A stretch of DNA of 64,000 nt from Bacteriovoracaceae bacterium (GTDB lineage: Bacteria; Bdellovibrionota; Bacteriovoracia; Bacteriovoracales; Bacteriovoracaceae). The translations under genes were made by a program, and so were the position numbers. The first letter of the stretch is position 1; the number at the start of each line of letters is the position of its first letter. Positions 12,454 to 26,822 of the stretch are shown in pieces. The stretch lies in contig JBKJPL010000036.1 in the NCBI GenBank assembly GCA_046595005.1, positions 35,140 to 99,139 on the forward strand, read 5' to 3'. Under the pieces are notes generated by a model. It had not been told where the DNA came from, made no database searches, and worked only from the letters and a program-made list of their open reading frames with translations.

Positions 12454-12705
12454 CTAAAGACGCTGAGAACCTTTCTGATCGCCGATATATTCAAAACGCT
12501 GAACAGTTTTTCCATCCACTTCAACCGTCTCAAGAAACATAGAAAGTGGTCTGACCCAGATCTTTGCGGCTTCATTCTCATAAAGGCACTCATAAACGAC
12601 CATCCACTCCATCGTCTCCGAGTGGCGTGCGAGTTCGTGAACCTTATAGGTCTTGCCCTTGTAATGACGATAAATTCCACCAAGCTTTAGTTCGTCTTTC
12701 ACCAA
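12454..12705 (-). CDS. DUF1653 domain protein
   Basis: YRHYKGKTYKV...ARHSETMEWMVVYECLY...WVRPLSMF...RF signature. Confidence 0.92.
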   Translation of the reverse strand: MVKDELKLGGIYRHYKGKTYKVHELARHSETMEWMVVYECLYENEAAKIWVRPLSMFLETVEVDGKTVQRFEYIGDQKGSQRL

Positions 12706-14051
12706 GATATTTTCTCCAGAAACATGAATGGGAAGATCCCAATGAAGAACATCATAATCAGGATGATGAGATATGGGAACATCTCGAAGAGCGACATATC
12801 GAGAATTTTGGTCTTCGTCCGCGAAGGATTGGTTCCGAGAAAGAGCTTTGAGAAAAGTAAGAAGAAGAGAATACCGTTAAGGCAGGTCGCAAAGATATGA
12901 CCAAGCCCAAGATAAGGCTGTTGTTCAAGGAGGCCGGTAATAACCAGATCTTCCGCGACAAAAGATGCGAGCAGCGGAACACCAATGAGACAGAAACCGA
13001 AAAGGCAAAAAAGAGTCGCGAGTTTTGGAAAGTCCTGAGCGAGGCCATAGTATGACTGAGATTTTCTGAAGGAGATGTGTCCCTGGATATGAGACATAAT
13101 TGACCAGAGAGCAATTCCTGAGAAAGAAATAACCATCATATGGAGATATGAACCACGGAGAGCAACACTGGTCGCCTGAAGGCCGGTGAGGATGAGAGAG
13201 GCCTGGGCAATATAAAAATAAGTAACCTGCTTTTGAACGTTCTCCTCAAAGATTCCGCGATAAGACCAGTAGATTGAGGAAAAAATTGAAAATCCAAGAA
13301 GCATGATCTTAAATAAATCGGGTTCGGCACTATAGTTTGGGAGCATGAACTGAACAAAGAGAAGTACTCCCGCGCGCGGAAGGAATATTGCCGCGAGCTC
13401 GTACCATCTGACCTCGTCAACAAGATCGTGAACCCATGAATGAAAAGGAAAAATTCCATGCGACTGGTAAACAATAAGAAAACAAAGGAGGAGAACATCG
13501 ACTCTGAAGAACTCAGCAGGATATTCCATCAATGGGTAAAGTAAGTAACCTGCAGAAGAAGATTTAATCATCAATACAACGGCACAGATAAAACATAGAG
13601 AATGCTGAATCAGGTAAGTACCACCTGAATGTGAAGTTCCATCACGCATATTCTTCAGGAAGTTTCGTCCGGGAACTCCACGCTGGAGGAAATAGAAGAA
13701 AAAGAATGTCGGCATATTGTCTGCCATGACAATACCCATTCCACCACCAAGGAGAAGGAGAAAGTCGCGGTTGAATGTGATCTCATTCCTTACCGGAAAC
13801 AGACCCATAAATAAGGCCCCACAGAAGATGGAACCTACAAAGAGACTGGGACGGTTAAAGGAAAAGGAAAGGAGTGAATGAGTGCTGACAGTTGCTTCCG
13901 GTAAAGAAAAAAAGAGCCATGTCATAAGGACAAAGAGAATCATGAGAACAGAAAGAGTGAGTTCCTTAGTCCTGTGAAGTTTCGGCGCAAATATCCAGCC
14001 ACCAAAAGTGAGAAGAAGTGGAAGTGTTTTAAGAGCAGCTTCAAAAGGCAT
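12699..14051 (-). CDS. Proton-conducting membrane transporter subunit (NuoM/MrpD-like, divergent)
   Basis: Highly hydrophobic; GIFPFHSW, YGLAQDFP, LIGVPLLASFVAEDL resemble the PF00361 family; start overlaps the dabB stop (TAATG). Confidence 0.75.
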   Translation of the reverse strand: MPFEAALKTLPLLLTFGGWIFAPKLHRTKELTLSVLMILFVLMTWLFFSLPEATVSTHSLLSFSFNRPSLFVGSIFCGALFMGLFPVRNEITFNRDFLLLLGGGMGIVMADNMPTFFFFYFLQRGVPGRNFLKNMRDGTSHSGGTYLIQHSLCFICAVVLMIKSSSAGYLLYPLMEYPAEFFRVDVLLLCFLIVYQSHGIFPFHSWVHDLVDEVRWYELAAIFLPRAGVLLFVQFMLPNYSAEPDLFKIMLLGFSIFSSIYWSYRGIFEENVQKQVTYFYIAQASLILTGLQATSVALRGSYLHMMVISFSGIALWSIMSHIQGHISFRKSQSYYGLAQDFPKLATLFCLFGFCLIGVPLLASFVAEDLVITGLLEQQPYLGLGHIFATCLNGILFFLLFSKLFLGTNPSRTKTKILDMSLFEMFPYLIILIMMFFIGIFPFMFLEKISW

Positions 14052-15367
14052 TATTTAATCCTCAGAAGTTTAGATAACAAGGCATTATCCCACTTCATCA
14101 TCTTCTTCTCGGTCTGAAAAATTAGTTTCATGGGATAACTCACGCCCCGAAGAAAGCGATGAGTGAAGTGATCAAGATGAAAGGAGTGCAAAGCATGCAC
14201 ATAAATTTTCTTCTGGACCGTTAACGGGAGAAATTGAATAAAGGAAAGTCCACGACGGATACTGACGTCCTGTTTAACAATCGGATTGTCTGTGAAATCC
14301 TGGATAAGAGAAAGTGAACGCAGGAACTGCCATGTTCGAAGAGATGCATGTGCCACCATGTGAAACATAGCAAAGTTTGTGTAACCGAGAGCAATTTCAA
14401 TATAAATGATTCCTACCTGGGTGATGGTTGCAAATCCCAGCATGGTCTTGGCATCAGATCTGGTTCTACCTACAAGTGTTGCCCAGATGGCAGATAGGGC
14501 CCCGATAACTCCGATTGCGATCAGAAGCGATGGAAAATTCTCCAGATAATTGTGAAAACGTATGAGTAGAAATGGTCCGAGATGAACTGAAAGAGCACCA
14601 TAAAAAATTGCACTGGATGGAGTTGGCCCTTCCATCGCTGTCGGAAGCCACGACGACATCGGAAGTTGCCCCGCCTTAGCGAGAGAAGCAAATATGATGA
14701 AAATTCCGATGAAGATAAGACCACTCCCCTCTGCATGATTCAGAAGTTTAGGAAGTTCGGTGAAATCAGTTGAATGCAAATAAAGATGTGCCCATGCACC
14801 TGCCGCGAGAATACCCATATCACAGATCCGGTAGCTCACAATCGCTTTGATCGAATGCCTCACTGGCTGAACCTGAGTATAAAAATAACTGATGAGTAGA
14901 ACTGATGTCGTTCCCACTAGCTCCCACCCTATGAAGAGTAGATCGATAGAGCGGGCAAAGCTTACAATATTGAGACCAAACCAGAGAACGATAAGGAGAA
15001 AGACGAAACGAAAATAACCTTCTTCACGGTGAAGGTAATTTCTTGAGAACCGGAAAATTATCCCAATGAGACATGCTGTGAGTAATGAGTATGTCGCTCC
15101 CAGAAGATCAATAATGAATGGAAGTCCGAAGTAATAATCCCGAACCTCAATCCAGTGCCCATAATCCACAAGAAGTTCTGATGGAGACAGAATCCAGGAA
15201 AGCGTAAAGAGCCAGAATCCAACAGCTACCATCCCCAGCGAAAAAAACTTCACAACCGTCGAGAGAATTCGCTCAGACCAGCGGGTTCGCATGAGGAATG
15301 TCATTCCCAGAACGCACATGAAAATAAATGGAGCTAATAAGGTAGTTAGGAAAAGTTTCTCCATCAT
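14051..15367 (-). CDS. dabB: DabB/MpsA-like NuoL-family membrane subunit of an inorganic-carbon pump
   Basis: GWELVG, AKAGQLPMSSWLPTAMEGPTPSSAIFYGALSVH, KTMLGFATITQVG, HMVAHASLRTWQFL; ATG overlaps the stop of the DUF2309 gene. Confidence 0.85.
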   Translation of the reverse strand: MMEKLFLTTLLAPFIFMCVLGMTFLMRTRWSERILSTVVKFFSLGMVAVGFWLFTLSWILSPSELLVDYGHWIEVRDYYFGLPFIIDLLGATYSLLTACLIGIIFRFSRNYLHREEGYFRFVFLLIVLWFGLNIVSFARSIDLLFIGWELVGTTSVLLISYFYTQVQPVRHSIKAIVSYRICDMGILAAGAWAHLYLHSTDFTELPKLLNHAEGSGLIFIGIFIIFASLAKAGQLPMSSWLPTAMEGPTPSSAIFYGALSVHLGPFLLIRFHNYLENFPSLLIAIGVIGALSAIWATLVGRTRSDAKTMLGFATITQVGIIYIEIALGYTNFAMFHMVAHASLRTWQFLRSLSLIQDFTDNPIVKQDVSIRRGLSFIQFLPLTVQKKIYVHALHSFHLDHFTHRFLRGVSYPMKLIFQTEKKMMKWDNALLSKLLRIK

Positions 15368-18117
15368 GAGGAGATCTCCGCAAAATCCAGAGACTTCACC
15401 AGTGACATAAGTTCAAGAGAACTTCCTACTTTTTTAGAACTTCCGCCTTCGTTATGAAGTTCTTTCCATTTCCCGTGGCCATAAAGAAGCCACTTTCCGG
15501 TTTCTGGATCATGGACCACAAGTCTCAACCAGTGCTGGCGGACAATATTCCGGAGACGAGGGTGTCCATTGAAAAGAATTTCCACTCTTTCAAAAGGTGC
15601 TTCAATGATAGTCATGCAACGAATTGGCTCATGAATCTCAACCATCTGACGGGCAAGCCCTATCCGGAGATCTCCCTGAGATCCGGTCATCACTCCTAAA
15701 AGAGAAGTCAGGTTGAGTGGAAGCTTGGATCCACAGCCAAAGTTTTCATTATCAACGAGGGAGAAATAATAATCCATGTTGATGTTACAAGCGACGGGAA
15801 CGCCACCAATCACAACCTGGGCAAGTATTTTTCCATCCGGATCAATCGTCCAGTCGTACGTATGAAGGAATGATCGGCGATTCAGAAACAGGCCCTTTGT
15901 CAGATCTCTCTTAGCGACAACTGAGAGAGCATTTTTCGAATGCCCATACTCGGGCCGTGGCTGGGCAGGATCCATCGCGCGTTCTCTGACATGCTTGGCA
16001 GCAGCGTCTGCATCAAGCTTTGCTTCACGCAGACTGAAACGCTGGCAACGTTCAAGGGCATTTCTCTTTAGAGCTTCGGTGAGATTTTTCCTGACAGCAT
16101 CCAGGAGTTTGATTTTCTCCGGTGGAACCATATCCAGATCAAAGAAAGATACTTCATCAGCGCAAGTATCATGGTAGCCGGAAATCACCACCGTTGATTC
16201 AGGTATGTGAACTCCTGAAGTTTCAAGCAGAACTCTCACTCTTGGATCATTGGCCATCCTGGCAAATGCTCTTGAGTTCGGAATACCAGCGTTACCGCCG
16301 CATGCTCCGCAACCATAGGCTTGCCTGAATGGATTGTTTGTCGACGAAGATCCATGTGAGAGAAGTACGATCAGAGGAGAGAAGAAACTTCTCATACCAC
16401 ACTGATCAAAAATATTTTTTACAATTCCTGCCATCTCATTGACATCATAACCGTGATACTCGTCCGTCTTTTCGACGTTGATAATAGTTTTTGGTTCTGA
16501 AGACATCAGCGAGAAAAAACCACTCTTTATCTTCTTTGCATTTCCCGGAAAAAATATCTGTAAGAACATCGGAATAATACTCAGAGTGCCCAGGATCAAA
16601 GTCGTGATAATGCCTCTAAAGAGAGTGCGCGACTGATAATAGAATGCCAGATCTGTGAATCCATGAAAGTTATTCAATTTCTTAAAGACTGTACTCTGAG
16701 ATTTATCCACAATGATTTCTGTGACTATTTTCGAAGGTTTCACCACCGGAGGGCATTGAGCAATAAGCCTCTCATTTTTTATAGACGCAAACTTCATATC
16801 AATACCAAAGAAACCCACCACTCCATAGGTAGCGAGTTTCGGGTTCACTTCTTCAGTGTGACGGCGGATAGATTCTTCGCGATCATCGATACAAAAAAGA
16901 ATCTGTGCTTCTGGAGTATTGGTGATGCTCTGGCTACCCTTCCCTATTATCGCTTTTAAGGCCTTCCGGTAATACTCATGTTCAAAAGCTTCATGCCATA
17001 GACGAACATTATGAGTTTTCTCCGCGAGATCTACACCGTCAATGACCTGAAGGGCCTCTTCGCAGGTAAGTTTCTGAACCCAACGGGTGTCAAGCTTCAT
17101 ATCTTTGGTGATCTGATAAAGAGCGAGTGAAAGGTTGAAACTTGAAAGCTTGATTTCTTCTTTCCGCCCACGAATGAGAGTAATGTCGAGAGAATGTAAT
17201 TCGGAGAAGAAAGTATCGACTGAAGATTCAATCAGGAGAAGAGCTGCGATGTACTCAGTGAGCTTGATGACAGGAGCTTTTACAGTAGCTTGCCATGGTT
17301 CAACTTCGAGCTTGTTAACCATTCCGGACCATCCCTTCAGATCGAAGAGAATATCCAGAAGATAACTTTCCCAGATTTCTTCAGGAATTTTCATCTTCTG
17401 AAGCTCATTAACAATTATATCGGCTGGATCAGATCCACCATATGCTTCAATCTTTGCGGCAAAGACTTTCTGCCAGCCAGAAAGAAAACTACCAGTCTGT
17501 TTTATGTCATAGGCGAGAAATTTCCAGAATCCCTCTTGAGTGAAGGGATTACTCCAGAAGCTTTGTCCCTGATCGAGATAGCTTCCAGCGAGCCGGGTAA
17601 TGAGTGGATGAATTGAGAGATTAAAAAGCACGTTGTAATGTTTTTCCCAGTAGCCTTTTGCACGCCACTTAACGGGTGAACGGGACAGGACAAGAGAAGA
17701 GTCTTTTACTTTCTCACGACAGAACATCCATAACCGTTCATCTTCCAGTTCAGGTTGTATTTCATCATCGTTGAAATTTAATTCTGAGAACATGAGGTGA
17801 TAAAAAAAATCTTTTTTTTCTAATCCCATTACATTCAGAAAAGGCAGATCGTGGTAGTAGCCCAGATAATGTTCCAGGGCCTCCATGATATCTTCCTGCC
17901 CGATCTTTTTCTGAGCATGGAGATCTTTGTAACGTTCAACCGGCCAGTAAGTTTTCGCCCGGTAGAGTGGTCCAGCCTCTGAAAGAGCATCATGAAAGTC
18001 GAGATGCTCGAACATCTGGAGGATATTATTGTGAACAAAACTATGCAGTGGATTTTGAAGCGGAAGCTTACTTCTGATGGCGCCCAATAGTTTTTCAAAT
18101 TGAATGTTTGAAGTCAT
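15364..18117 (-). CDS. dabA: DabA/MpsB (DUF2309) beta-carbonic-anhydrase-like subunit
   Basis: LPLQNPLHSFVHNNIL N-terminus; Zn-ligand motifs FCIDDREES, HGSSSTNNP, CGACGG; RPEYGH, LFLNRRSFL, INMDYYFS, HEPIR. Confidence 0.93.
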   Translation of the reverse strand: MTSNIQFEKLLGAIRSKLPLQNPLHSFVHNNILQMFEHLDFHDALSEAGPLYRAKTYWPVERYKDLHAQKKIGQEDIMEALEHYLGYYHDLPFLNVMGLEKKDFFYHLMFSELNFNDDEIQPELEDERLWMFCREKVKDSSLVLSRSPVKWRAKGYWEKHYNVLFNLSIHPLITRLAGSYLDQGQSFWSNPFTQEGFWKFLAYDIKQTGSFLSGWQKVFAAKIEAYGGSDPADIIVNELQKMKIPEEIWESYLLDILFDLKGWSGMVNKLEVEPWQATVKAPVIKLTEYIAALLLIESSVDTFFSELHSLDITLIRGRKEEIKLSSFNLSLALYQITKDMKLDTRWVQKLTCEEALQVIDGVDLAEKTHNVRLWHEAFEHEYYRKALKAIIGKGSQSITNTPEAQILFCIDDREESIRRHTEEVNPKLATYGVVGFFGIDMKFASIKNERLIAQCPPVVKPSKIVTEIIVDKSQSTVFKKLNNFHGFTDLAFYYQSRTLFRGIITTLILGTLSIIPMFLQIFFPGNAKKIKSGFFSLMSSEPKTIINVEKTDEYHGYDVNEMAGIVKNIFDQCGMRSFFSPLIVLLSHGSSSTNNPFRQAYGCGACGGNAGIPNSRAFARMANDPRVRVLLETSGVHIPESTVVISGYHDTCADEVSFFDLDMVPPEKIKLLDAVRKNLTEALKRNALERCQRFSLREAKLDADAAAKHVRERAMDPAQPRPEYGHSKNALSVVAKRDLTKGLFLNRRSFLHTYDWTIDPDGKILAQVVIGGVPVACNINMDYYFSLVDNENFGCGSKLPLNLTSLLGVMTGSQGDLRIGLARQMVEIHEPIRCMTIIEAPFERVEILFNGHPRLRNIVRQHWLRLVVHDPETGKWLLYGHGKWKELHNEGGSSKKVGSSLELMSLVKSLDFAEISS

Positions 18118-18187: not shown

Positions 18188-18340
18188 CTACAAACCGCCT
18201 GAACTGATCATTTCCACAACCGGGAGATAGATATCTTTCGCCACGGAAGATCTTTCAGCATTACTTAAGAGGTAAATAGATATAGCCACCCATATAGTTA
18301 TTATTACCAGAGCGAAAAGTTTCTTCGATTTATGGCTCAT
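18188..18340 (-). CDS. Unannotated 50-aa single-pass membrane protein between sulP and dabA
   Basis: Hand translation MSHKSKKLFALVIITIWVAISIYLLSNAERSSVAKDIYLPVVEMISSGGL*; basic N-terminus then a hydrophobic helix; starts 13 nt after the sulP stop; weak SD. Confidence 0.55.
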   Translation of the reverse strand: MSHKSKKLFALVIITIWVAISIYLLSNAERSSVAKDIYLPVVEMISSGGL

Positions 18341-18353
18341 TCGTTCTTTCACG

Positions 18354-19865
18354 TTAATGAGCCTTGATAAGCTGAAAAATCTTCCTGAACTTTTCCGGGA
18401 GTTTGATGGTCACTATCTTTCCTTTCTTTTCAAGTTGAGCGCTTGCTTTGGAGAAGAAAGCCAGAGAAGTCGGATCAATGTAGTTAATGTTAGCAAAGTT
18501 AATTTCTATATTCTTATAAGCAGAAACTTCATTTATTATTTCTTCTTGTTTCAAGACAGAAAAGAAAACGAGTGCGCCGTCAAACTCCAGTATTGCTTTG
18601 TCCCCATCACCCTCGATCCTATAACTCGGCTTAAGAAACGAAGATGGACTAGCTCCCTGACACCACGACAAAAACGCTTTCATGATAATTCCCGCAAAGA
18701 TTCCTGCCAGAAGATCAATCCCCAGAGTAACTACGATAGTGGTGATGTAGGAAAGAAAGGGATTCCATCCCAGGTTCTTCATGTCTTTAAATTGTTTCGG
18801 TTGCGCCAGTCTAAACCCTACAAGGATGAGAATTGCAGACAACGAGGACAAAGGTATGGCATTCAGCACTTTAGGAAACAGTAGAAGAAACAACAAAATA
18901 AAAAAACCATGCGAAAAATTTGCGAGTGCCGTACGCGCTCCCTGAGTGATGCTCGCAGATGATCGGACAATTTCCGCAATGATAGGTAAGCCCCCAAGTA
19001 ATCCGCAACAGATGTTTACAACTCCTTTACTCCAGAGCTCGCGGTCAAAATCAGACTCTCTGTTGAGAGGATCAAGTTTATCTACGGCGCTTGCAGACAA
19101 GATCGATTCAAGGCTTGCAACAAAGAACAGCGAGATAATTGAAAGTAGAGATTCTTTTGAAGTGATGAGATCGAAAGATGGGCGTATTAAAAATTGTGAA
19201 ATATCAGTAGGAATGTTTACCAGCTCAATATTCGGCAAAAACCTGGTGAGAAATATACCAGTGCACACCACCACCAGAGGTGCAGGAACATATTTGGTAA
19301 GACTTAATTTCAGGTACGGATAACTCAAAAGCAAAACCAGACAAAGAAGCCCGATGATAGCTGCTTCTGGATTTAATCCGATTATAGAATGTGGTATCTG
19401 GAGAAGTGAATTGATGATAGAGCCAGATGATTTATGTCCCAGGAATACATGAATTTGCTTAATCAAGATGATAAGCCCGATTGATGAAAGCATGCCATGA
19501 ACAACAGAAGACGGAAAAAGAGATACAAATCTTCCGGCCTTCAAAATACCGCTCAGAATCTGAAGAACACCCATTATAATTACACAAGCGAGCATGCGCC
19601 TGAAACCCATGATCGGGTCACCATGAGAAAGGCTTTGAATGGCGCCCAGGACTACGACAATGAGTCCCGCTGCCGGACCATTAATAGTGACATATGATCC
19701 ACCAAGTATGGACCCTATTATTCCTCCTAAAACCGCAGAAACAAGACCAGCGCTGGATGGTGCCCCAGAAGCAATGGATATGCCCAATGACAAAGGCAGT
19801 GCAATTAGAAACACGACTAATCCAGCCTTAATATCTATGGGTGCGGACTCTTTTATGTTTATCAT
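18354..19865 (-). CDS. SulP/SLC26-family anion (probably bicarbonate) transporter with STAS domain
   Basis: DIKAGLVVFLIALPLSLGISIASGAP, TINGPAAGL, GGLPIIAEIVRSS, and C-terminal STAS-like YIDPTSL. Confidence 0.9.
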   Translation of the reverse strand: MINIKESAPIDIKAGLVVFLIALPLSLGISIASGAPSSAGLVSAVLGGIIGSILGGSYVTINGPAAGLIVVVLGAIQSLSHGDPIMGFRRMLACVIIMGVLQILSGILKAGRFVSLFPSSVVHGMLSSIGLIILIKQIHVFLGHKSSGSIINSLLQIPHSIIGLNPEAAIIGLLCLVLLLSYPYLKLSLTKYVPAPLVVVCTGIFLTRFLPNIELVNIPTDISQFLIRPSFDLITSKESLLSIISLFFVASLESILSASAVDKLDPLNRESDFDRELWSKGVVNICCGLLGGLPIIAEIVRSSASITQGARTALANFSHGFFILLFLLLFPKVLNAIPLSSLSAILILVGFRLAQPKQFKDMKNLGWNPFLSYITTIVVTLGIDLLAGIFAGIIMKAFLSWCQGASPSSFLKPSYRIEGDGDKAILEFDGALVFFSVLKQEEIINEVSAYKNIEINFANINYIDPTSLAFFSKASAQLEKKGKIVTIKLPEKFRKIFQLIKAH

Positions 19866-19896
19866 TACGCATTCTCCAAATTGTTCGATTTGAGTT

Positions 19897-19939
19897 AGTA
19901 TAAAGAAGCGTTATGAACGAGAGATGAATTCCTGATGAA
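19897..19939 (-). promoter_or_regulatory. Candidate sulP promoter: -10 TATACT plus three direct repeats at 11-bp period
   Basis: ATGAA at 19913, 19924 and 19935 (+); minus-strand TATACT at 19902-19897, 10 nt from the nearest repeat. Confidence 0.6.
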
Positions 19940-19966
19940 AAAAAATTCATACTGAGAGACATGTGA

Positions 19967-20635
19967 ATGAGAATTTTAGTTGTTGAGGACGAGTTAAAAC
20001 TTGCAAAATATACGGCCCAAACGCTGTCAGAAATGAGCTACATAGCTGAGATAGCTTCGACAGGCATGAAAGCACGGGAGTTATTCAAGTTAATTGATTA
20101 TGACCTTATCATTCTGGATATTAAGTTACCCGATGCTGACGGCATTGATTTATGCAGAGAATTTAAAAATTTAAAGCCAAAAAAACCGGTTCTCATGCTC
20201 ACTACACTCTCGCAAGTCTATGACAAAGTGAAAGGCTTGAACTCAGGGGCGGACGATTATATGACTAAGCCTTTTCACGTAGAGGAATTATCTGCGAGAG
20301 TCCGCGCTCTTCTCAGAAGGCATGATGTACAAGGTCTTCACCTCAAATGTGCAGACCTTGAGCTGGACCTTGTGAGGCGAGAAGCAATCCGAAATGGAAA
20401 AAATATAAAACTTACGACAAAAGAATTCGGGTTACTTGAATATCTTCTCAGAAATGTGGGCAGACCCCTTTCCAGGGCCCAGATTGCAGAGCATGTATGG
20501 GATCTGCATTTTGATCCAGAATCTAATGTCGTTGATGCCTACATTAAACAGCTGCGAAAGAAAATAGACAGCGAAAACTCTAAAAAACTAATTAAGACGA
20601 TAGTTGGTTTAGGCTATGTCATTAGTGATGAGTAA
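19967..20635 (+). CDS. OmpR/PhoB-family response regulator (CusR/CzcR-like)
   Basis: VEDE, LDIKLP, GADDYMTKPF, LTTKEFGLLEYL, SNVVDAYIKQLRKKID, TIVGLGY. Confidence 0.95.
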   Translation: MRILVVEDELKLAKYTAQTLSEMSYIAEIASTGMKARELFKLIDYDLIILDIKLPDADGIDLCREFKNLKPKKPVLMLTTLSQVYDKVKGLNSGADDYMTKPFHVEELSARVRALLRRHDVQGLHLKCADLELDLVRREAIRNGKNIKLTTKEFGLLEYLLRNVGRPLSRAQIAEHVWDLHFDPESNVVDAYIKQLRKKIDSENSKKLIKTIVGLGYVISDE

Positions 20636-22286
20636 TTCATATAAGGATCTAAAGAAAAGTGCTCTAAAATTCGCAGCTATAATTTCCCTGATATTATTTT
20701 CTATCGATTACTTTCTCTACTTTTCACGAATCAACAGCAAAAAATCTGAAATTGTGCTCGATATCCTCCAACGGGATGAGAAGCAGACTAATGAAATCTA
20801 TCGACTTATTAATAGTCTGGAAGATGATCTGAGTTTTCTTGAAAAAGAGATATTTTCCGCTCAAAAGTCTGAAGCAGAAGAGAAAGTTAAACCTCTCATC
20901 TCTTTCATGGAAACGCATCCCCATTATATCAAGCTTCGGCTTGCGACGATTGAGGGCAAAGAGCTTTTTAAGATTGTAAAAAGATCAAAAGTAACTGGAT
21001 TTGAAGAATCAAAAAAATATTTTCACCTTGGCGGTCAGAAGTTTTTCGATGATTTAAAAAAAGCAGGTCATGACTCATATTTCTTCTCGGCAATGGATGC
21101 CAACATCATTGACGGTAAAATAGAAAAACCACTTCGTCCGACGATTCGGGTATCGAAACGAACGAGATTATTTTCCGGGGCAGAAGGAATTCTGATCTTA
21201 AACATTGACGGTCATGACATTCTGAATTTGTTTACCTATGGCAGTGGGATTTCAAAATTTGTTTCAGAAAAAATATTCGTGGATGACTCGGGAAATTTTG
21301 TCGCTTCGTACCCTCTGCTTCCGCTCGAGAAGTATACGATCTCGAAGAAAAAAATAGACGCTGAGATTCTACAGAATCTGAATAAAACTCCGAAGAACTA
21401 TGGATCTTTCGCATTCGAAGATAGAATCGTTATATACACAAAGTTATCATTACCAAGAACCAATGAAAATTGGTTCATGATCTCACTGATATCTGAAAAT
21501 GCTATCAGTAAGTCTTTTCAATCGGAAAGGCTAGCTTGGCTGTTCTGGGAAATGCTGTTTTTTTGTCTTGGCGTGACGTGGTTCTGGAAGTCTGAGAAGA
21601 AAAGATATCATGAACAAGTAGTAAAGGTTCTCCTTCATGAAAGAAGTGAGTTTATAGAAAATGTTTCTCACCAGCTTAAAACACCCCTGGCAATTATAAA
21701 CAATTATCTTTCCCAACCCGAACGAACCTCAGCACACATTTCAGACATCAAGAGTGAGGTCTCTCACCTGATTAAGGTCATAGATGATCTTTTGCTTTTA
21801 TCTCATGTTGAGTCGTTTAAAGATATTTCCTTACAAAAAGAAAGTGTCCTGGAAGTTGTAAGTCAGGCAATTGACCTGGTTGCAGAAAAGGCCAAGGAAA
21901 AGAAAGTTAATCTGAAATTTAATCTTAGGGAAGATCTTCTGGATTCAACCAATTTCCTGGAACGTTATATGATGCCCGAGCTGATAAAATCGGCGATCTC
22001 TAACATCCTGGTGAATGCTATTGATCATGGACCCACCGGATCAGATATAAATATTGAAATGTATCTCGAAGGCTCACGAATTTTCATCACAATAAAGGAT
22101 TCTGGTCCTGGTATTCCAGATTCATTTGTCCCGATGATCTTTAACAGATTCACCCGGGCACAGGGCCAGGAGCGTAAAGGATCAGGCCTTGGACTTGCTA
22201 TTTCCAGGAAGATAATAGAACTCCATGGAGGCTCGATCAGACTATCCTCAAATACAGATGGAGCGACGTTCGAAATTATCCTCTGA
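20616..22286 (+). CDS. Sensor histidine kinase with periplasmic Cache-like domain
   Basis: Two TM segments flanking about 270 aa containing YIKLRL..EGKE and DANIIDGKIEKPLRPTIR; SHQLKTPL H-box, NAIDH, DSGPGI, GSGLGLAI. Confidence 0.9.
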   Translation: MSLVMSNSYKDLKKSALKFAAIISLILFSIDYFLYFSRINSKKSEIVLDILQRDEKQTNEIYRLINSLEDDLSFLEKEIFSAQKSEAEEKVKPLISFMETHPHYIKLRLATIEGKELFKIVKRSKVTGFEESKKYFHLGGQKFFDDLKKAGHDSYFFSAMDANIIDGKIEKPLRPTIRVSKRTRLFSGAEGILILNIDGHDILNLFTYGSGISKFVSEKIFVDDSGNFVASYPLLPLEKYTISKKKIDAEILQNLNKTPKNYGSFAFEDRIVIYTKLSLPRTNENWFMISLISENAISKSFQSERLAWLFWEMLFFCLGVTWFWKSEKKRYHEQVVKVLLHERSEFIENVSHQLKTPLAIINNYLSQPERTSAHISDIKSEVSHLIKVIDDLLLLSHVESFKDISLQKESVLEVVSQAIDLVAEKAKEKKVNLKFNLREDLLDSTNFLERYMMPELIKSAISNILVNAIDHGPTGSDINIEMYLEGSRIFITIKDSGPGIPDSFVPMIFNRFTRAQGQERKGSGLGLAISRKIIELHGGSIRLSSNTDGATFEIIL

Positions 22287-22360: not shown

Positions 22361-22819
22361 ATGGAAAGTAAAACGACATGGATTCGAGGCATGCAGTTCA
22401 AGGCGGAAAATCGCGGACTGGTGTCTCACTTTGATGTCTCAGCGGAACAGGGAGGGGAAAATTCGGCCCCTACTCCGAAAGAAGTACTGCTAAATGCCAT
22501 GTGCGCCTGTTCAGGTATGGATGTGGTAGCGATAGCAAAAAAAATGCGCCTGGAACTTTCTTCGGTGTCGATGACGGCCACGGCCGAAAAAACAAACACC
22601 ATTCCTTCCTATTTTGCTTCGGTCCATATCAAATATTTTATCGAAGGACTGGATCTCGATCGTGAAAAGGTCATTCGCCTCGTAAGTCTTTCCATGACCA
22701 AGTACTGTGGCGTGAGCTACATGGTCGCGAAGGCTTCTCCAATAACCTACGACATCACTCTGAACGGCAAAGTCATTCATCAGGATAAGGCCGAATTTTC
22801 TCTGGAGGTTCTGACGTGA
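22361..22819 (+). CDS. OsmC/YhfA family protein
   Basis: PTPKEVLLNAMCACSGMDV and KYCGVS with two conserved Cys. Confidence 0.9.
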   Translation: MESKTTWIRGMQFKAENRGLVSHFDVSAEQGGENSAPTPKEVLLNAMCACSGMDVVAIAKKMRLELSSVSMTATAEKTNTIPSYFASVHIKYFIEGLDLDREKVIRLVSLSMTKYCGVSYMVAKASPITYDITLNGKVIHQDKAEFSLEVLT

Positions 22820-23517
22820 CTGCAGAAAAACCGGTCATTATTTTTCTTCATGCAGCCCTGAGTACTTCAAAAGAACTCGAGCCCCTGATGAAGATTGTCG
22901 CTGAAAAGGGATACCGCACTCTGACCTTTGATTTCTCCGGGCATGGAAGAACTGCCGCATTACCATCTGATTTCCGTATTGATCATTTTGCCGGTGAACT
23001 TGATAAATTCATCAAGTCACATAAGCTGACTGCTCCCGCAGTTTTCGGCCATTCGCTTGGTGGATATGTAGCACTTTTTCACAAGGCCAATGTAGAAGAT
23101 TCTCCGATCACACATATCATTACCTATGGAACGAAGTTCAACTGGTCAGAGTCATCAGTGGCGAAAGAACTCCCGATGATGATTCCCGAACATATTGAAG
23201 AAAAGTTCCCTGGTTTCCGCGATATTCTGATTGAGAGACATGGCGAACGATGGAAGCATCTTCTCCGCTCCACTGCCCACATGGTGAGAAATCTCGAAAA
23301 GCTTGACGGTCTCACACGGGAAGATATGGCGAGTATCGAGATTCCTGTTTGCCTCTTGTTTGGTGATCAGGACCGGATGGTTGGCATTGAGGAAACGCAA
23401 CTGGCCCACAACCAGCTTCATCATTCAGTTGTTAAGACAATCGGCCACTCTAAACATGATTTAGATAAGGCAAACCTGAAAGAAATAGCCGGCATCATGG
23501 AAAATTTCCTCTTCTGA
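22816..23517 (+). CDS. Alpha/beta hydrolase
   Basis: FDFSGHG, GHSLGG nucleophile elbow, GDQD, and a C-terminal His. Confidence 0.88.
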   Translation: MTAEKPVIIFLHAALSTSKELEPLMKIVAEKGYRTLTFDFSGHGRTAALPSDFRIDHFAGELDKFIKSHKLTAPAVFGHSLGGYVALFHKANVEDSPITHIITYGTKFNWSESSVAKELPMMIPEHIEEKFPGFRDILIERHGERWKHLLRSTAHMVRNLEKLDGLTREDMASIEIPVCLLFGDQDRMVGIEETQLAHNQLHHSVVKTIGHSKHDLDKANLKEIAGIMENFLF

Positions 23518-23576: not shown

Positions 23577-23978
23577 ATGCAGCCCAAGATAATCGCTATT
23601 ATCGACGATGAGCCCGAGATGGAAGACCTCTATCTTCTGATTCTCGAATCCCTTATTGATCGGGAAGTCGTCGAACTCCAATTCTTCCCGGATGGGCTGA
23701 CCTTTCTGACGTGGTTCCGTAAAAACAGACCCGATCTTCTCCTCTGCGATATCAATCTTCCGGGAATGAATGGAACTGAGCTGGTCCAGGAGATGCGTCG
23801 CCTGGAAATACTTGGCTCAACGCCCTGCATCCCGGTGAGTTTCGTGAGTGGCCACCATCCTGAGAACTATACGGACATCATGAAAGAATGTGCTGTGACC
23901 CGATTTATCACCAAACCCCTTTCGGCGCGGGAAACTCTGGCCCTGATCGAGAAAGATCTGGGATTAGTTTCCCCATAG
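23577..23978 (+). CDS. Single-domain response regulator
   Basis: IIDDE, CDINLPGMNG, VSG, TKP. Confidence 0.9.
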   Translation: MQPKIIAIIDDEPEMEDLYLLILESLIDREVVELQFFPDGLTFLTWFRKNRPDLLLCDINLPGMNGTELVQEMRRLEILGSTPCIPVSFVSGHHPENYTDIMKECAVTRFITKPLSARETLALIEKDLGLVSP

Positions 23979-24011
23979 ATTCAAAGTCCATTCTGAGAGA
24001 AAATATTCCGA

Positions 24012-26822
24012 ATGAGAGAATACGCATGGATCGCAGAGCTGGCCGCTGAGTGCAAAGAGTACTCTGACTCTTTAGGGGCGTACTTCGCCAAGTCTGTATC
24101 AAAAGTTTCATTTGATCCGGTTCCCCAGCATGAGATGAAGCGCTCATGGGCCGTACTCACGCGTGACCTCGTTTATTTTTCATTCGATGAAGATTCGCCT
24201 TACCCGCCCGAGATGCAGGAAACTATCCGCGCGCTCGAGACAATCGGGATTGATAAGTTCAACCAGGATCTCCTGAACGAAGCAAGTCTCGCTCCTATTT
24301 TCTCGGCCAGCTTTGAAAAACTTTTCAATACTCTTGAAGCTCATCCGCAGATTCTGGAAATGTTGGATCAGGCAGATATTATCGAAGATATTCTTGGTGT
24401 CGTAGCAAGAAGATATCTTCCGATTTTTAAACTCTTCCCGGTTTTCAGCACGGAAGCACTTGCTGTTGTTCCTCACCTTCGCGAGCCACTTTTTACCGCT
24501 CTCTATGAGCTCCCTGAATCTGAACATAAGCGCCTCACCTTTCTCACTGAGAAAATCATGCGGAAGTTTTATGGCGAACAGGTAAGACCCAAGCTCTATG
24601 AAATGCTCAAGTCCAACATCAAGGGAAGAAATCTTCTTCTTCCTCTGATCGATGAGGCCGTGAATCACCTTCCACCTGATCGTTGTATGACTTCTCTTAT
24701 TTCTATTCTCTGTACTCCGCGTGAGGAACTCACGCAGGGAAGAATTATTTCCATCGTCCTCCAGGAACTCGGAGGAATGTATGTGAAGCTTGCCCAGGTT
24801 CTCGCAGAACTTGCTCCTCCTTCACTAGCTAAAGAACTTCGACACCAGCAGGATAAGCTCGGTGGTATTTTCGGCTCTCAGGAAAAATCCTGGAAATATG
24901 TTCTGGAAATTCTGAGTCGCCCTGCCTGGGAAAGAATCCGTTCCTATATTCATATTCCCACTCACACGCAGAATGCTTTCGCTGGTGCCTCGGTTGGTGC
25001 CATTTATGAATTCCAGCTCACGGAGCATGGGAAAAGAAAATTAGGTACTGAGAACTCGATACTCCTTAAAGTTCAAAGACCAGGGCTCACGGTACTTTTT
25101 GAGCAGCAGAAAAATACTCTTCTCTCTATTCTCGATCATCTTGACCAGACTCTGCCGGAAACAGAATTATCCGTACAGGAACAGCAGGAAGTGAAGGCGC
25201 TCATCACTGCTTTAAAAAGAACGATTATCAATTACGCCGCTCAATCTATCGGCGAGCTTGATTTCCGGATCGAAAAGAAAAATGCGGAGATGGTAAGAGC
25301 TGCACTGAAAGGGAAATTCGACCTCGAAATTCCCCAGTATTTTCACGTTGAGCCTGATGTCTCGATGATGGAAAGAATTAACGGCGAAAAAATCACTTCG
25401 ATTGTTCAGTCCAGATATCTTGAACGCATGAGTATTTCCGACCTCGTCTCCGATGCTTATCTCTATCTCATGTTCAAGGAAGGTATCATCTGGGCCGATC
25501 CACATGCCGGAAATATACTTTATGATCCTGATCGCCATCAGGTAAAACTCATTGATCTTAATCCGTGTTTCACCTGGGAACGCCATACGATCAAGATTTT
25601 TATCGGCTTCCTCTATCGTCTGATTCTCTCTGACCAGAAAGGAATCATGCATTCCCTTTCGGGTCTAGTCGTAAATCCGGATGACCTGAAATCGGAAAAA
25701 AACCAGAAACTCATTAATGACTTTCTCGCACAGGGAAATTCTGGTGCGTTCATTCGTTATCTTTCTGAGTTCGTGCGTCTCCTCGGAGAAGCAAACATCG
25801 ATCTCCGGATTGAAGTTCAGGCCGCTCTTCGCGGGCTGTCTCAGGTTTACATCACATCTGCAGCGATCTCATCGCGAAATAACTTCGGACAGAATTTCCA
25901 GAAGCAATTTGGCTGGAAAGTTGTAGTTAAGCACGTTCTCTCGATTGGACCTTTAAAAGTTATCCGCGCAGCTCTTCCACTCGCTTTTGATCTTGTGAGA
26001 AATTCTCCCGAGCAGGAAGTCGGTCCTACTCTTGATGAGCGCGATCTCTTAGCAATCCATGAGGCCCTCGAACTTCTCAACCAGGAAAACGTCTGCAACA
26101 TTGAAATGCTCCGCACTTCTCCGGAAGACAATACCAATCTCTCACTCGCGGGTGACGGATCAAGTCTCATCAAAAGTTCGCATCTGAGACTCACGATTCA
26201 GACAGAAACTAAACCCGCATCGGTTCGTTATATTATCGAGATTCCATCAAAAGAATGGCTCAAAGAACGCCAGGAATATGTAAAACTTCAGGGTCTGGGT
26301 TTCACACTATGTATTGTGGAATGCATGGAACAGCTTCGAAGACATTCTCTTGAAGATTACTGGCTCGTGGCCGAATTCTGGAATGCTGTTCCCGGAAAAA
26401 GATCTCTGAAAGCAAACAGTATCATTGGTGACGTTCGGGTTGCCGCGCGCATGCTCTTTACCCGTCGTTATGAAAATATCTGGGTATCGGAATACATGAC
26501 GATCTCAAAAAGGAATCGTTTCCTTTGGAAATTGATGATTCACTTTGAAGAAAGATTCGAGAGAAGAGAGCAAGGCTATTTCTATCTTCTGAGTAAAAAA
26601 ATGGGTGCTGCAGAGAAAGTTGGACAGCTCACTTTCGGAACTCTTCACCGTGTGAAAGTTATTACTTATCGACTCATCATCTCAGGCATCAAGACCCTTA
26701 TACGAAGTGCCCGCTTCGAGATGAATCTCCTTCCCCTGTCTACGGACGACCTCATCAATCGTATGATTCACGGACTTCTGCGCCGTGGGGTGCATTTTGA
26801 ACGCAGAAAGAACGAAAAATAG
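24012..26822 (+). CDS. ABC1/UbiB/AarF-family atypical kinase with long extensions
   Basis: LGGMYVKLAQ, ASVGAIY, LKVQRPG, ELDFRIE, MERING, WADPHAGNI. Confidence 0.85.
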   Translation: MREYAWIAELAAECKEYSDSLGAYFAKSVSKVSFDPVPQHEMKRSWAVLTRDLVYFSFDEDSPYPPEMQETIRALETIGIDKFNQDLLNEASLAPIFSASFEKLFNTLEAHPQILEMLDQADIIEDILGVVARRYLPIFKLFPVFSTEALAVVPHLREPLFTALYELPESEHKRLTFLTEKIMRKFYGEQVRPKLYEMLKSNIKGRNLLLPLIDEAVNHLPPDRCMTSLISILCTPREELTQGRIISIVLQELGGMYVKLAQVLAELAPPSLAKELRHQQDKLGGIFGSQEKSWKYVLEILSRPAWERIRSYIHIPTHTQNAFAGASVGAIYEFQLTEHGKRKLGTENSILLKVQRPGLTVLFEQQKNTLLSILDHLDQTLPETELSVQEQQEVKALITALKRTIINYAAQSIGELDFRIEKKNAEMVRAALKGKFDLEIPQYFHVEPDVSMMERINGEKITSIVQSRYLERMSISDLVSDAYLYLMFKEGIIWADPHAGNILYDPDRHQVKLIDLNPCFTWERHTIKIFIGFLYRLILSDQKGIMHSLSGLVVNPDDLKSEKNQKLINDFLAQGNSGAFIRYLSEFVRLLGEANIDLRIEVQAALRGLSQVYITSAAISSRNNFGQNFQKQFGWKVVVKHVLSIGPLKVIRAALPLAFDLVRNSPEQEVGPTLDERDLLAIHEALELLNQENVCNIEMLRTSPEDNTNLSLAGDGSSLIKSSHLRLTIQTETKPASVRYIIEIPSKEWLKERQEYVKLQGLGFTLCIVECMEQLRRHSLEDYWLVAEFWNAVPGKRSLKANSIIGDVRVAARMLFTRRYENIWVSEYMTISKRNRFLWKLMIHFEERFERREQGYFYLLSKKMGAAEKVGQLTFGTLHRVKVITYRLIISGIKTLIRSARFEMNLLPLSTDDLINRMIHGLLRRGVHFERRKNEK

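Follow-up and report, generated by a model that had tools for sequence, protein, structure and literature searches.

A conserved array of phased TTCAT half-sites as the probable control region of a sulP promoter in a Bacteriovoracaceae bacterium

The window analysed here, a stretch of 64,000 nucleotides of a Bacteriovoracaceae genome, contains an array of four half-sites in the 101-bp intergenic region at 19866-19966, between sulP on the minus strand and an OmpR-family response regulator gene on the plus strand, and we are nearly certain that this array is a functional protein-binding site. It is probable that the neighbouring regulator, in its phosphorylated form, binds to the array and activates a -35-less sulP promoter, from which transcription is predicted to start at approximately 19890. 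On the sulP strand, array and -10 together read ATGAA-N6-TTCAT-N6-TTCAT-N6-TTCAT-N10-TATACT, covering 55 bp at 19897-19951, and the region contains the following elements:

19873 to 19877, minus strand: Shine-Dalgarno sequence GGAGA of sulP as read off the sequence, 7 nt before the ATG at 19865
19890, minus strand: predicted sulP transcription start, an A located 7 nt past the TATACT hexamer (alignment column 8, invariant)
19897 to 19902, minus strand: -10-like hexamer TATACT of the sulP promoter (AGTATA on the plus strand), 10 nt (19903-19912) from R1
19913 to 19917, minus strand: R1, promoter-proximal half-site, TTCAT on the sulP sense strand, approximately -27 to -23 from the predicted start; ATGA invariant in 11 loci
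19924 to 19928, minus strand: R2, TTCAT, approximately -38 to -34; all five bases invariant in 11 loci
19935 to 19939, minus strand: R3, TTCAT, approximately -49 to -45; TGAA invariant and first base A or G in 11 loci
19947 to 19951, plus strand: R4, inverted half-site, TTCAT on the plus strand and ATGAA on the sulP strand, approximately -61 to -57; TCAT invariant in 11 loci

The first-pass annotation had described ATGAA at 19913, 19924 and 19935, and the exact 11-bp period of this triple is present in the sequence, as is the minus-strand TATACT, which lies exactly 10 nt from the nearest repeat. The fourth, inverted copy R4, which forms the palindrome ATGAA-N6-TTCAT together with R3, was absent from that description. 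We searched related genomes and metagenomes and found the regulator-kinase pair in 7 of the 51 species of the genus, the kinase likewise occurring in 7/51 genomes, and on five metagenome contigs; at every locus with assembled upstream DNA, sulP is divergent from the regulator gene. Eleven control regions, derived from six GTDB species and the five metagenome contigs and representing approximately seven lineages, were aligned with zero gaps over 80 alignment columns. Invariant columns are found at three positions of the -10 hexamer (A2, T3 and T6), in the ATGA, ATGAA, TGAA and TCAT cores of the four sites and at column 8, which corresponds to position 19890. Among the seven lineages, the mean pairwise identity is 0.93 for the sites and 0.76 for the -10, as compared to 0.26 for the N10 spacer, 0.44 for the 6-nt spacers between the sites and 0.33-0.39 for the flanks, and the length of the spacer between R1 and the hexamer is fixed at 10 nt in 11/11 loci. 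The repeats, their 11-bp phase and their 10-nt distance to the minus-strand -10 are thus conserved without gaps in about seven lineages, while the intervening sequence is randomised. Because sites, phase and distance are all constrained, this is the pattern expected of a protein-binding array that is coupled to the sulP promoter.

The minus-strand hexamers of the seven lineages (TATACT and CATAAT and TATAAT twice each, TATTGT once) match TATAAT at 5.1 of six positions on average. No -35-like hexamer or complete sigma-70 promoter was found on either strand of the intergenic region, nor an extended -10, and the place of the sulP -35 is filled by R2 and a variable spacer. A plus-strand TAnnAT hexamer, shifted by one base relative to the minus-strand -10, is conserved as well, and one could propose that the array is mainly an operator through which the regulator-kinase operon controls itself, by positive or negative feedback, and that sulP is not a real target. 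Autoregulation is common among two-component systems. The array ends only 16 nt before the regulator start codon and, as a Shine-Dalgarno sequence follows R4 in every regulator orthologue, the regulator transcript has to start within or upstream of the array; in the aligned orthologues, we looked downstream of R4 for a promoter of the regulator operon, and also for one with the repeats serving as its -35, and found no conserved -10 at any fixed distance. However, it is the minus strand that agrees with the constant 10-nt spacing and with the invariant +1. Among the six GTDB species, the plus-strand register matches TATAAT at 4.3/6 positions versus 5.2/6 for the minus strand, and neither a conserved start base nor a -35 was found for it in the aligned orthologues. 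Furthermore, orthologues differ in the distance between R4 and the regulator start codon (12 to 42 nt), and part of the array persists in front of sulP in species from which the regulator genes are gone. We therefore regard an array that serves autoregulation instead of sulP as improbable. The two functions are compatible and a dual role is likely: since the array falls within the leader of the regulator operon or immediately upstream of it, it probably sets the expression of this operon as well.

The presumed binder of the array and its kinase are encoded directly next to it:

19967 to 20635, plus strand: OmpR/PhoB-family response regulator, 222 aa, presumed to bind the array (PF00072 and PF00486)
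20616 to 22286, plus strand: histidine kinase, 556 aa, with an extracytoplasmic double-Cache sensor (HisKA and HATPase_c); 20-nt overlap with the regulator gene

The regulator has the receiver domain, the winged-helix Trans_reg_C domain and the phospho-acceptor aspartate of the OmpR/PhoB family, and residues D8, D51, T79 and K101 are invariant in four aligned orthologues. Its best NCBIfam model is cztR_silR_copR (TIGR01387), with a score of 231 bits that lies below the 279-bit cut-off. The kinase scores 94 bits against the heavy-metal kinase model (cut-off 293). An AlphaFold2 model of kinase residues 1-330 (pLDDT 86.6) contains a membrane-flanked double-Cache domain, for which the top Foldseek matches are the dCache domains 3lid, 2p7j, Tlp3 and PctD; the nearest solved structures are ligand-binding domains of putative kinases and of chemoreceptors. 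A profile of the kinase sensor gave only weak dCache matches outside the genus when run against 401 sampled genomes of the phylum. Downstream of the kinase, the plus strand (22361-23517 and 23577-26822) carries OsmC-like and alpha/beta hydrolase genes and, after these, a gene for a stand-alone receiver and an ORF of 936 aa; the OsmC gene is present at locus L103 too.

The array and this two-component system occur together. The four-site pattern was found exactly once in each of the six genomes (6/6) that have the system and assembled upstream DNA and in 0/45 others, and a control pattern gave 0 matches; because these six genomes also served to define the pattern, the informative part of this count is its absence elsewhere and, as the counted species are kin, the difference may stem from no more than one or two gains or losses. 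In one genome (G050), the full array is present and the first codons of the regulator lie at the contig edge. A scan of the genome contigs with the regulator alignment returned mostly paralogues and one true orthologue. The genome encodes approximately 15 full-length OmpR-type regulators, and the assignment of the array to its neighbour therefore rests on adjacency and co-occurrence. A competing reading is that another transcription factor, such as the conserved OmpR-family paralogue of contig C56, occupies the array or the palindrome at its distal end in place of the neighbouring regulator. Five species of the genus (G051, G062, G055, G048 and G053) have a sulP orthologue with 62-68% identity and neither a regulator nor a kinase orthologue. 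Their sulP gene faces a FAN1/VRR-NUC exonuclease gene, and their best match to the regulator is a paralogue with 46-51% identity and a similar recognition helix; the same paralogue is encoded in the genome under study (G000) on contig C56, with 85% identity. In all five promoters (L111, L112, L113, L114 and L117), TATACT and the distal ATGAA-N6-TTCAT are kept, and two retain a second TTCAT, which could mean that another factor binds there or could reflect recent common descent. R1, by contrast, is randomised in all five (GTTAC, GGAGC, GAAGA, CCTGC or CTTGC). The complete direct-repeat array occurs only where the neighbouring system is present, the palindrome alone is at chance level in the genome (15 occurrences versus 23.6 expected), and no array was found near the C56-type paralogue. 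In addition, distant homologues of the regulator have the same arrays beside their own genes, as described below. Taken together, it seems unlikely that a factor other than the neighbouring regulator binds the array in its place.

In three of the five promoters that lack the regulator-kinase pair, a better -35-like sequence, TTCACC, is located at a spacing of 16 nt from the -10. These promoters may represent a natural case in which an activator-dependent promoter has turned constitutive. They belong to close kin and thus probably go back to a single evolutionary event.

Among 79 loci from other phyla with regulator homologues of 39-54% identity, three were found to have a triple array with at most one mismatch, as compared to 0.003 expected. 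The layout repeat-N6-repeat-N10-TAnnnT recurs in L024, in L041 and, in both directions, in L027, and the regulator gene is the only feature that these loci share with the window. At L027:2807-3000 (Dehalococcoidales), two TTCAT arrays point in opposite directions, each separated by 10 nt from a -10-like hexamer; one faces the gene for an HtrA-like protease and the other that for the 46% identical regulator homologue. A comparison of recognition helices was tried as a discriminator and rejected, as many homologues have a helix of the DVYI type whether or not they have an array. Within the genome under study, no second convincing site was detected, neither three repeats with at most two mismatches nor two repeats followed by N10 and a -10, which points to a local regulon.

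The first-pass annotation had called the array Pho-box-like, and this holds for its geometry. At the pstS and phoA promoters, the repeats run toward the gene, the last of them ends 10 bp before the -10 and there is no -35. PhoB of E. coli recognises tandem repeats with an 11-bp period, located 10 bp upstream of a TAN3T/A -10 (PMC1906773). Similarly, the sulP array consists of 11-bp tandem direct repeats whose proximal copy lies 10 bp from a TAnnnT -10 without a -35, its presumed regulator belongs to the OmpR/PhoB family, and the half-sites have a 3' TCAT in common. However, the half-site is TTCAT and not CTGTCAT, the direct copies number three and are joined by an inverted one, and the target is an anion or carbon transporter and not a set of phosphate genes. 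Both proteins also lie far below the cut-offs of the phosphate system (regulator against PhoB TIGR02154, 173 bits with a cut-off of 296; kinase against PhoR TIGR02966, 127 bits with a cut-off of 334), the regulator being nearest to the CusR/CopR/CzcR subfamily, and the sensor of the kinase is of the dCache type. By sequence, by its predicted regulator and by its predicted target, the array is not a Pho box.

We propose that 19897-19951 is the control region of an activator-dependent sulP promoter. The dCache histidine kinase would phosphorylate the OmpR-family regulator, which would then assemble head to tail, as oligomers, on the TTCAT half-sites that are in phase with the DNA helix; R4, inverted and distal, might add a further protomer or stabilise the array. 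The promoter-proximal protomer, positioned at the missing -35, would recruit RNA polymerase in the manner of PhoB at a Pho box, presumably via sigma region 4. Transcripts starting at about 19890 would cover sulP and the gene for a small membrane protein of 50 aa and, in this organism, also dabA, dabB and a second antiporter-like gene. Conversely, the neighbouring regulator could bind to the array and repress sulP by covering the -35 region. The sites span approximately -61 to -23, where a bound protein can block RNA polymerase, and phosphorylated ArcA is reported to repress icdA through three direct repeats (PMC4173790). On the other hand, a promoter with neither a -35 nor an extended -10 offers little to sustain basal activity, and a strict spacing of 10 nt from the repeat to the -10 marks activation of the PhoB type (PMC1906773). 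The TTCACC sequence in three of the five genomes with a decayed R1 is likewise what would be expected if an activator had been lost. We thus consider repression to be rather less plausible still than the two preceding alternatives, and activation by the neighbouring regulator remains our preferred reading. The first-pass inference is supported to this extent, as all that it predicts at the level of the sequence holds up in the comparisons.

The least plausible explanation is that the array is a chance repeat or a by-product. The exact ATGAA triple occurs once in the window, as compared to 0.00 in 100 shuffles, and once in the 3.64-Mb genome, where 0.02-0.12 are expected. To allow for the post-hoc choice of the word, we counted triples of any 5-mer: with a period of 11, there are 20 genome-wide, corresponding to about 0.35 expected per 64-kb window, and shuffles of the 101-bp intergenic region gave P = 2.9e-4 for any 5-mer triple with a period of 10 or 11. 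The triple repeat is rare, yet taken alone it is within what a reading of the whole window might turn up, and chance is ruled out by the conservation of the array in orthologous loci. The other 19 period-11 triples of the genome could be further regulator arrays. On the plus strand at 19913-19955, each ATGAA starts a short frame, of 3-6 sense codons, which is closed by a TGA within the next repeat, the last of these small frames ending at the TGA at 19953-19955; the overlap of ATG and TGA follows automatically from the 11-nt period and, as none of the frames is preceded by a Shine-Dalgarno sequence, we take them as a by-product of the spacing. Although the region is AT-rich, a repeat that arose by chance or as a by-product of such tiny upstream ORFs is effectively refuted by the conservation data, since the footprint is conserved around randomised spacers and the triple is unique in the genome, and the arrays of L027 in both orientations and the lack of any Rfam match for the array region also argue against it.

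The genes that would be expressed from the sulP promoter form a co-oriented run on the minus strand:

18354 to 19865, minus strand: sulP, SulP-family anion transporter, 503 aa, first gene of the unit (PF00916, 214 bits)
18188 to 18340, minus strand: single-pass membrane ORF, 50 aa, between sulP and dabA, no Pfam match
15364 to 18117, minus strand: dabA, 917 aa (PF10070, 668 bits)
14051 to 15367, minus strand: dabB-like NuoL/Mrp-type subunit, 438 aa, overlapping the dabA stop (PF00361, 126 bits, and PF00662)
12699 to 14051, minus strand: second antiporter-like subunit, 450 aa, last gene of the run (PF00361)

The gaps or overlaps along this run are 13, 70, -4 and -1 nt, and no terminator-like site was found between sulP and dabA. 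The adjacency of a PF10070 DabA to a PF00361 NuoL/Mrp-like subunit predicts a DAB inorganic-carbon pump. The SulP protein is a member of the SulP family (PF00916) only, as its score against the nearest NCBIfam model, BicA, is 171 bits with a cut-off of 880. The proposal that the whole sulP-dab unit is the target stands in part: across species the conserved target appears to be sulP, accompanied by the small ORF, whereas, judging from gene order, dabAB is next to sulP only in some lineages. In G045 and L106, dabAB genes of another type follow sulP (DabA of 810-817 aa, 27-28% identical). In G008, a 771-aa dabA and its dabB are found on the far side of the kinase, in convergent orientation, and no array precedes this dabA. 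Only in G009 is sulP followed by a small ORF and then a heavy-metal P-type ATPase gene (L102:3-776, minus strand, with a heavy-metal-associated domain), which deserves mention because the regulator is nearest to a heavy-metal subfamily, and in L107 unrelated genes lie farther 3' of sulP. A membrane ORF of 50-51 aa is located directly 3' of sulP in three lineages, always on the minus strand (window 18188-18340, L102:874-1026 and L107:3320-3475); the three products are weakly alike, with 24-27% identity and a common end motif, and have no Pfam match. DabA is encoded in 42 of the 51 genomes of the genus, mostly unlinked to the regulator-linked sulP. Three DabA size classes, of 917, 810-817 and 771 aa, are found at the regulator-sulP module in different species; the 917-aa class is that of the window (12699-18117), and the loci of the other two are L100:1999-6260 and L124:817-4922. 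The second antiporter-like subunit is present only in the dab version of the window.

The linkage of the module to three types of dabA suggests a recurrent functional link, and such a repeated but varied association supports, and does not prove, a role related to inorganic carbon. One might speculate that the dCache kinase and the regulator form a dedicated sensor of inorganic-carbon status, responding to CO2 or bicarbonate or to a substitute cue, for instance pH or an organic acid, and inducing SulP/DAB uptake; we put this forward as a tentative possibility. No RuBisCO was found in the genome, which is 99.6% complete.

The arrangement of the locus resembles known two-component systems. The cusRS regulator-kinase operon is divergent from the transporter operon cusCFBA, which it controls, and the outer spacing of the distal palindrome, ATGA-N8-TCAT, is presumably the same as that of the CusR box. 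As in the Cus system and in AdeRS-adeABC, where the AdeR site is reported to lie in the intergenic region between the divergent regulator and transporter operons (PMC5766154), the array is located in the common intergenic region. The CusR/CopR/CzcR subfamily, including the CopRS, CzcRS and AgrRS systems, also provides the best family match of the regulator. In contrast to these systems, the regulator scores below the subfamily cut-off, the sensor is a dCache domain and not a metal sensor of the CusS type, the operon in the window contains no efflux or metal genes, and the array consists mainly of direct repeats. With at least three tandem half-sites one helical turn apart, the array is also similar to the ArcA sites and to those of SphR from Synechocystis, which binds at least three 11-bp-phased direct repeats (PMC1906773), but consensus, regulon and signal differ in both cases, and ArcA acts as a repressor at icdA. 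With regard to the presumed target, inorganic-carbon uptake genes, the closest comparison is to the LysR-type and Crp/Fnr-type regulators of the DAB and carbon-concentrating genes of Halothiobacillus neapolitanus (10.1101/476713) and to CcmR and CmpR, regulators of inorganic-carbon uptake genes in cyanobacteria. These known regulators are cytoplasmic one-component proteins of autotrophs, whereas the system described here is a two-component system with a membrane sensor in an organism in which no RuBisCO was found. Our literature search returned no published regulator box of the TTCAT type and no two-component regulator of DAB, and the DAB regulators named there are all from autotrophs.

Activation by an OmpR/PhoB-type protein bound to phased repeats is a textbook mechanism, and the switch itself is of a type that is ordinary in bacteria; the interest lies in the genes that are regulated and in the signal to which they respond. 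If the proposed sensing of inorganic-carbon status is correct, DAB pumps, whose known regulators are the cytoplasmic LysR and Crp/Fnr proteins, would here be under the control of a membrane two-component system. DAB pumps and SulP transporters are widespread in non-autotrophs, and the conditions under which these express them are little known. The array and its regulator might also provide an orthogonal promoter/regulator pair. With one dCache kinase, one regulator, four half-sites, one promoter and no other good site in the genome, the switch is compact, and for this reason it would be a clean system in which to find out what signal governs the uptake of inorganic carbon by a heterotroph.
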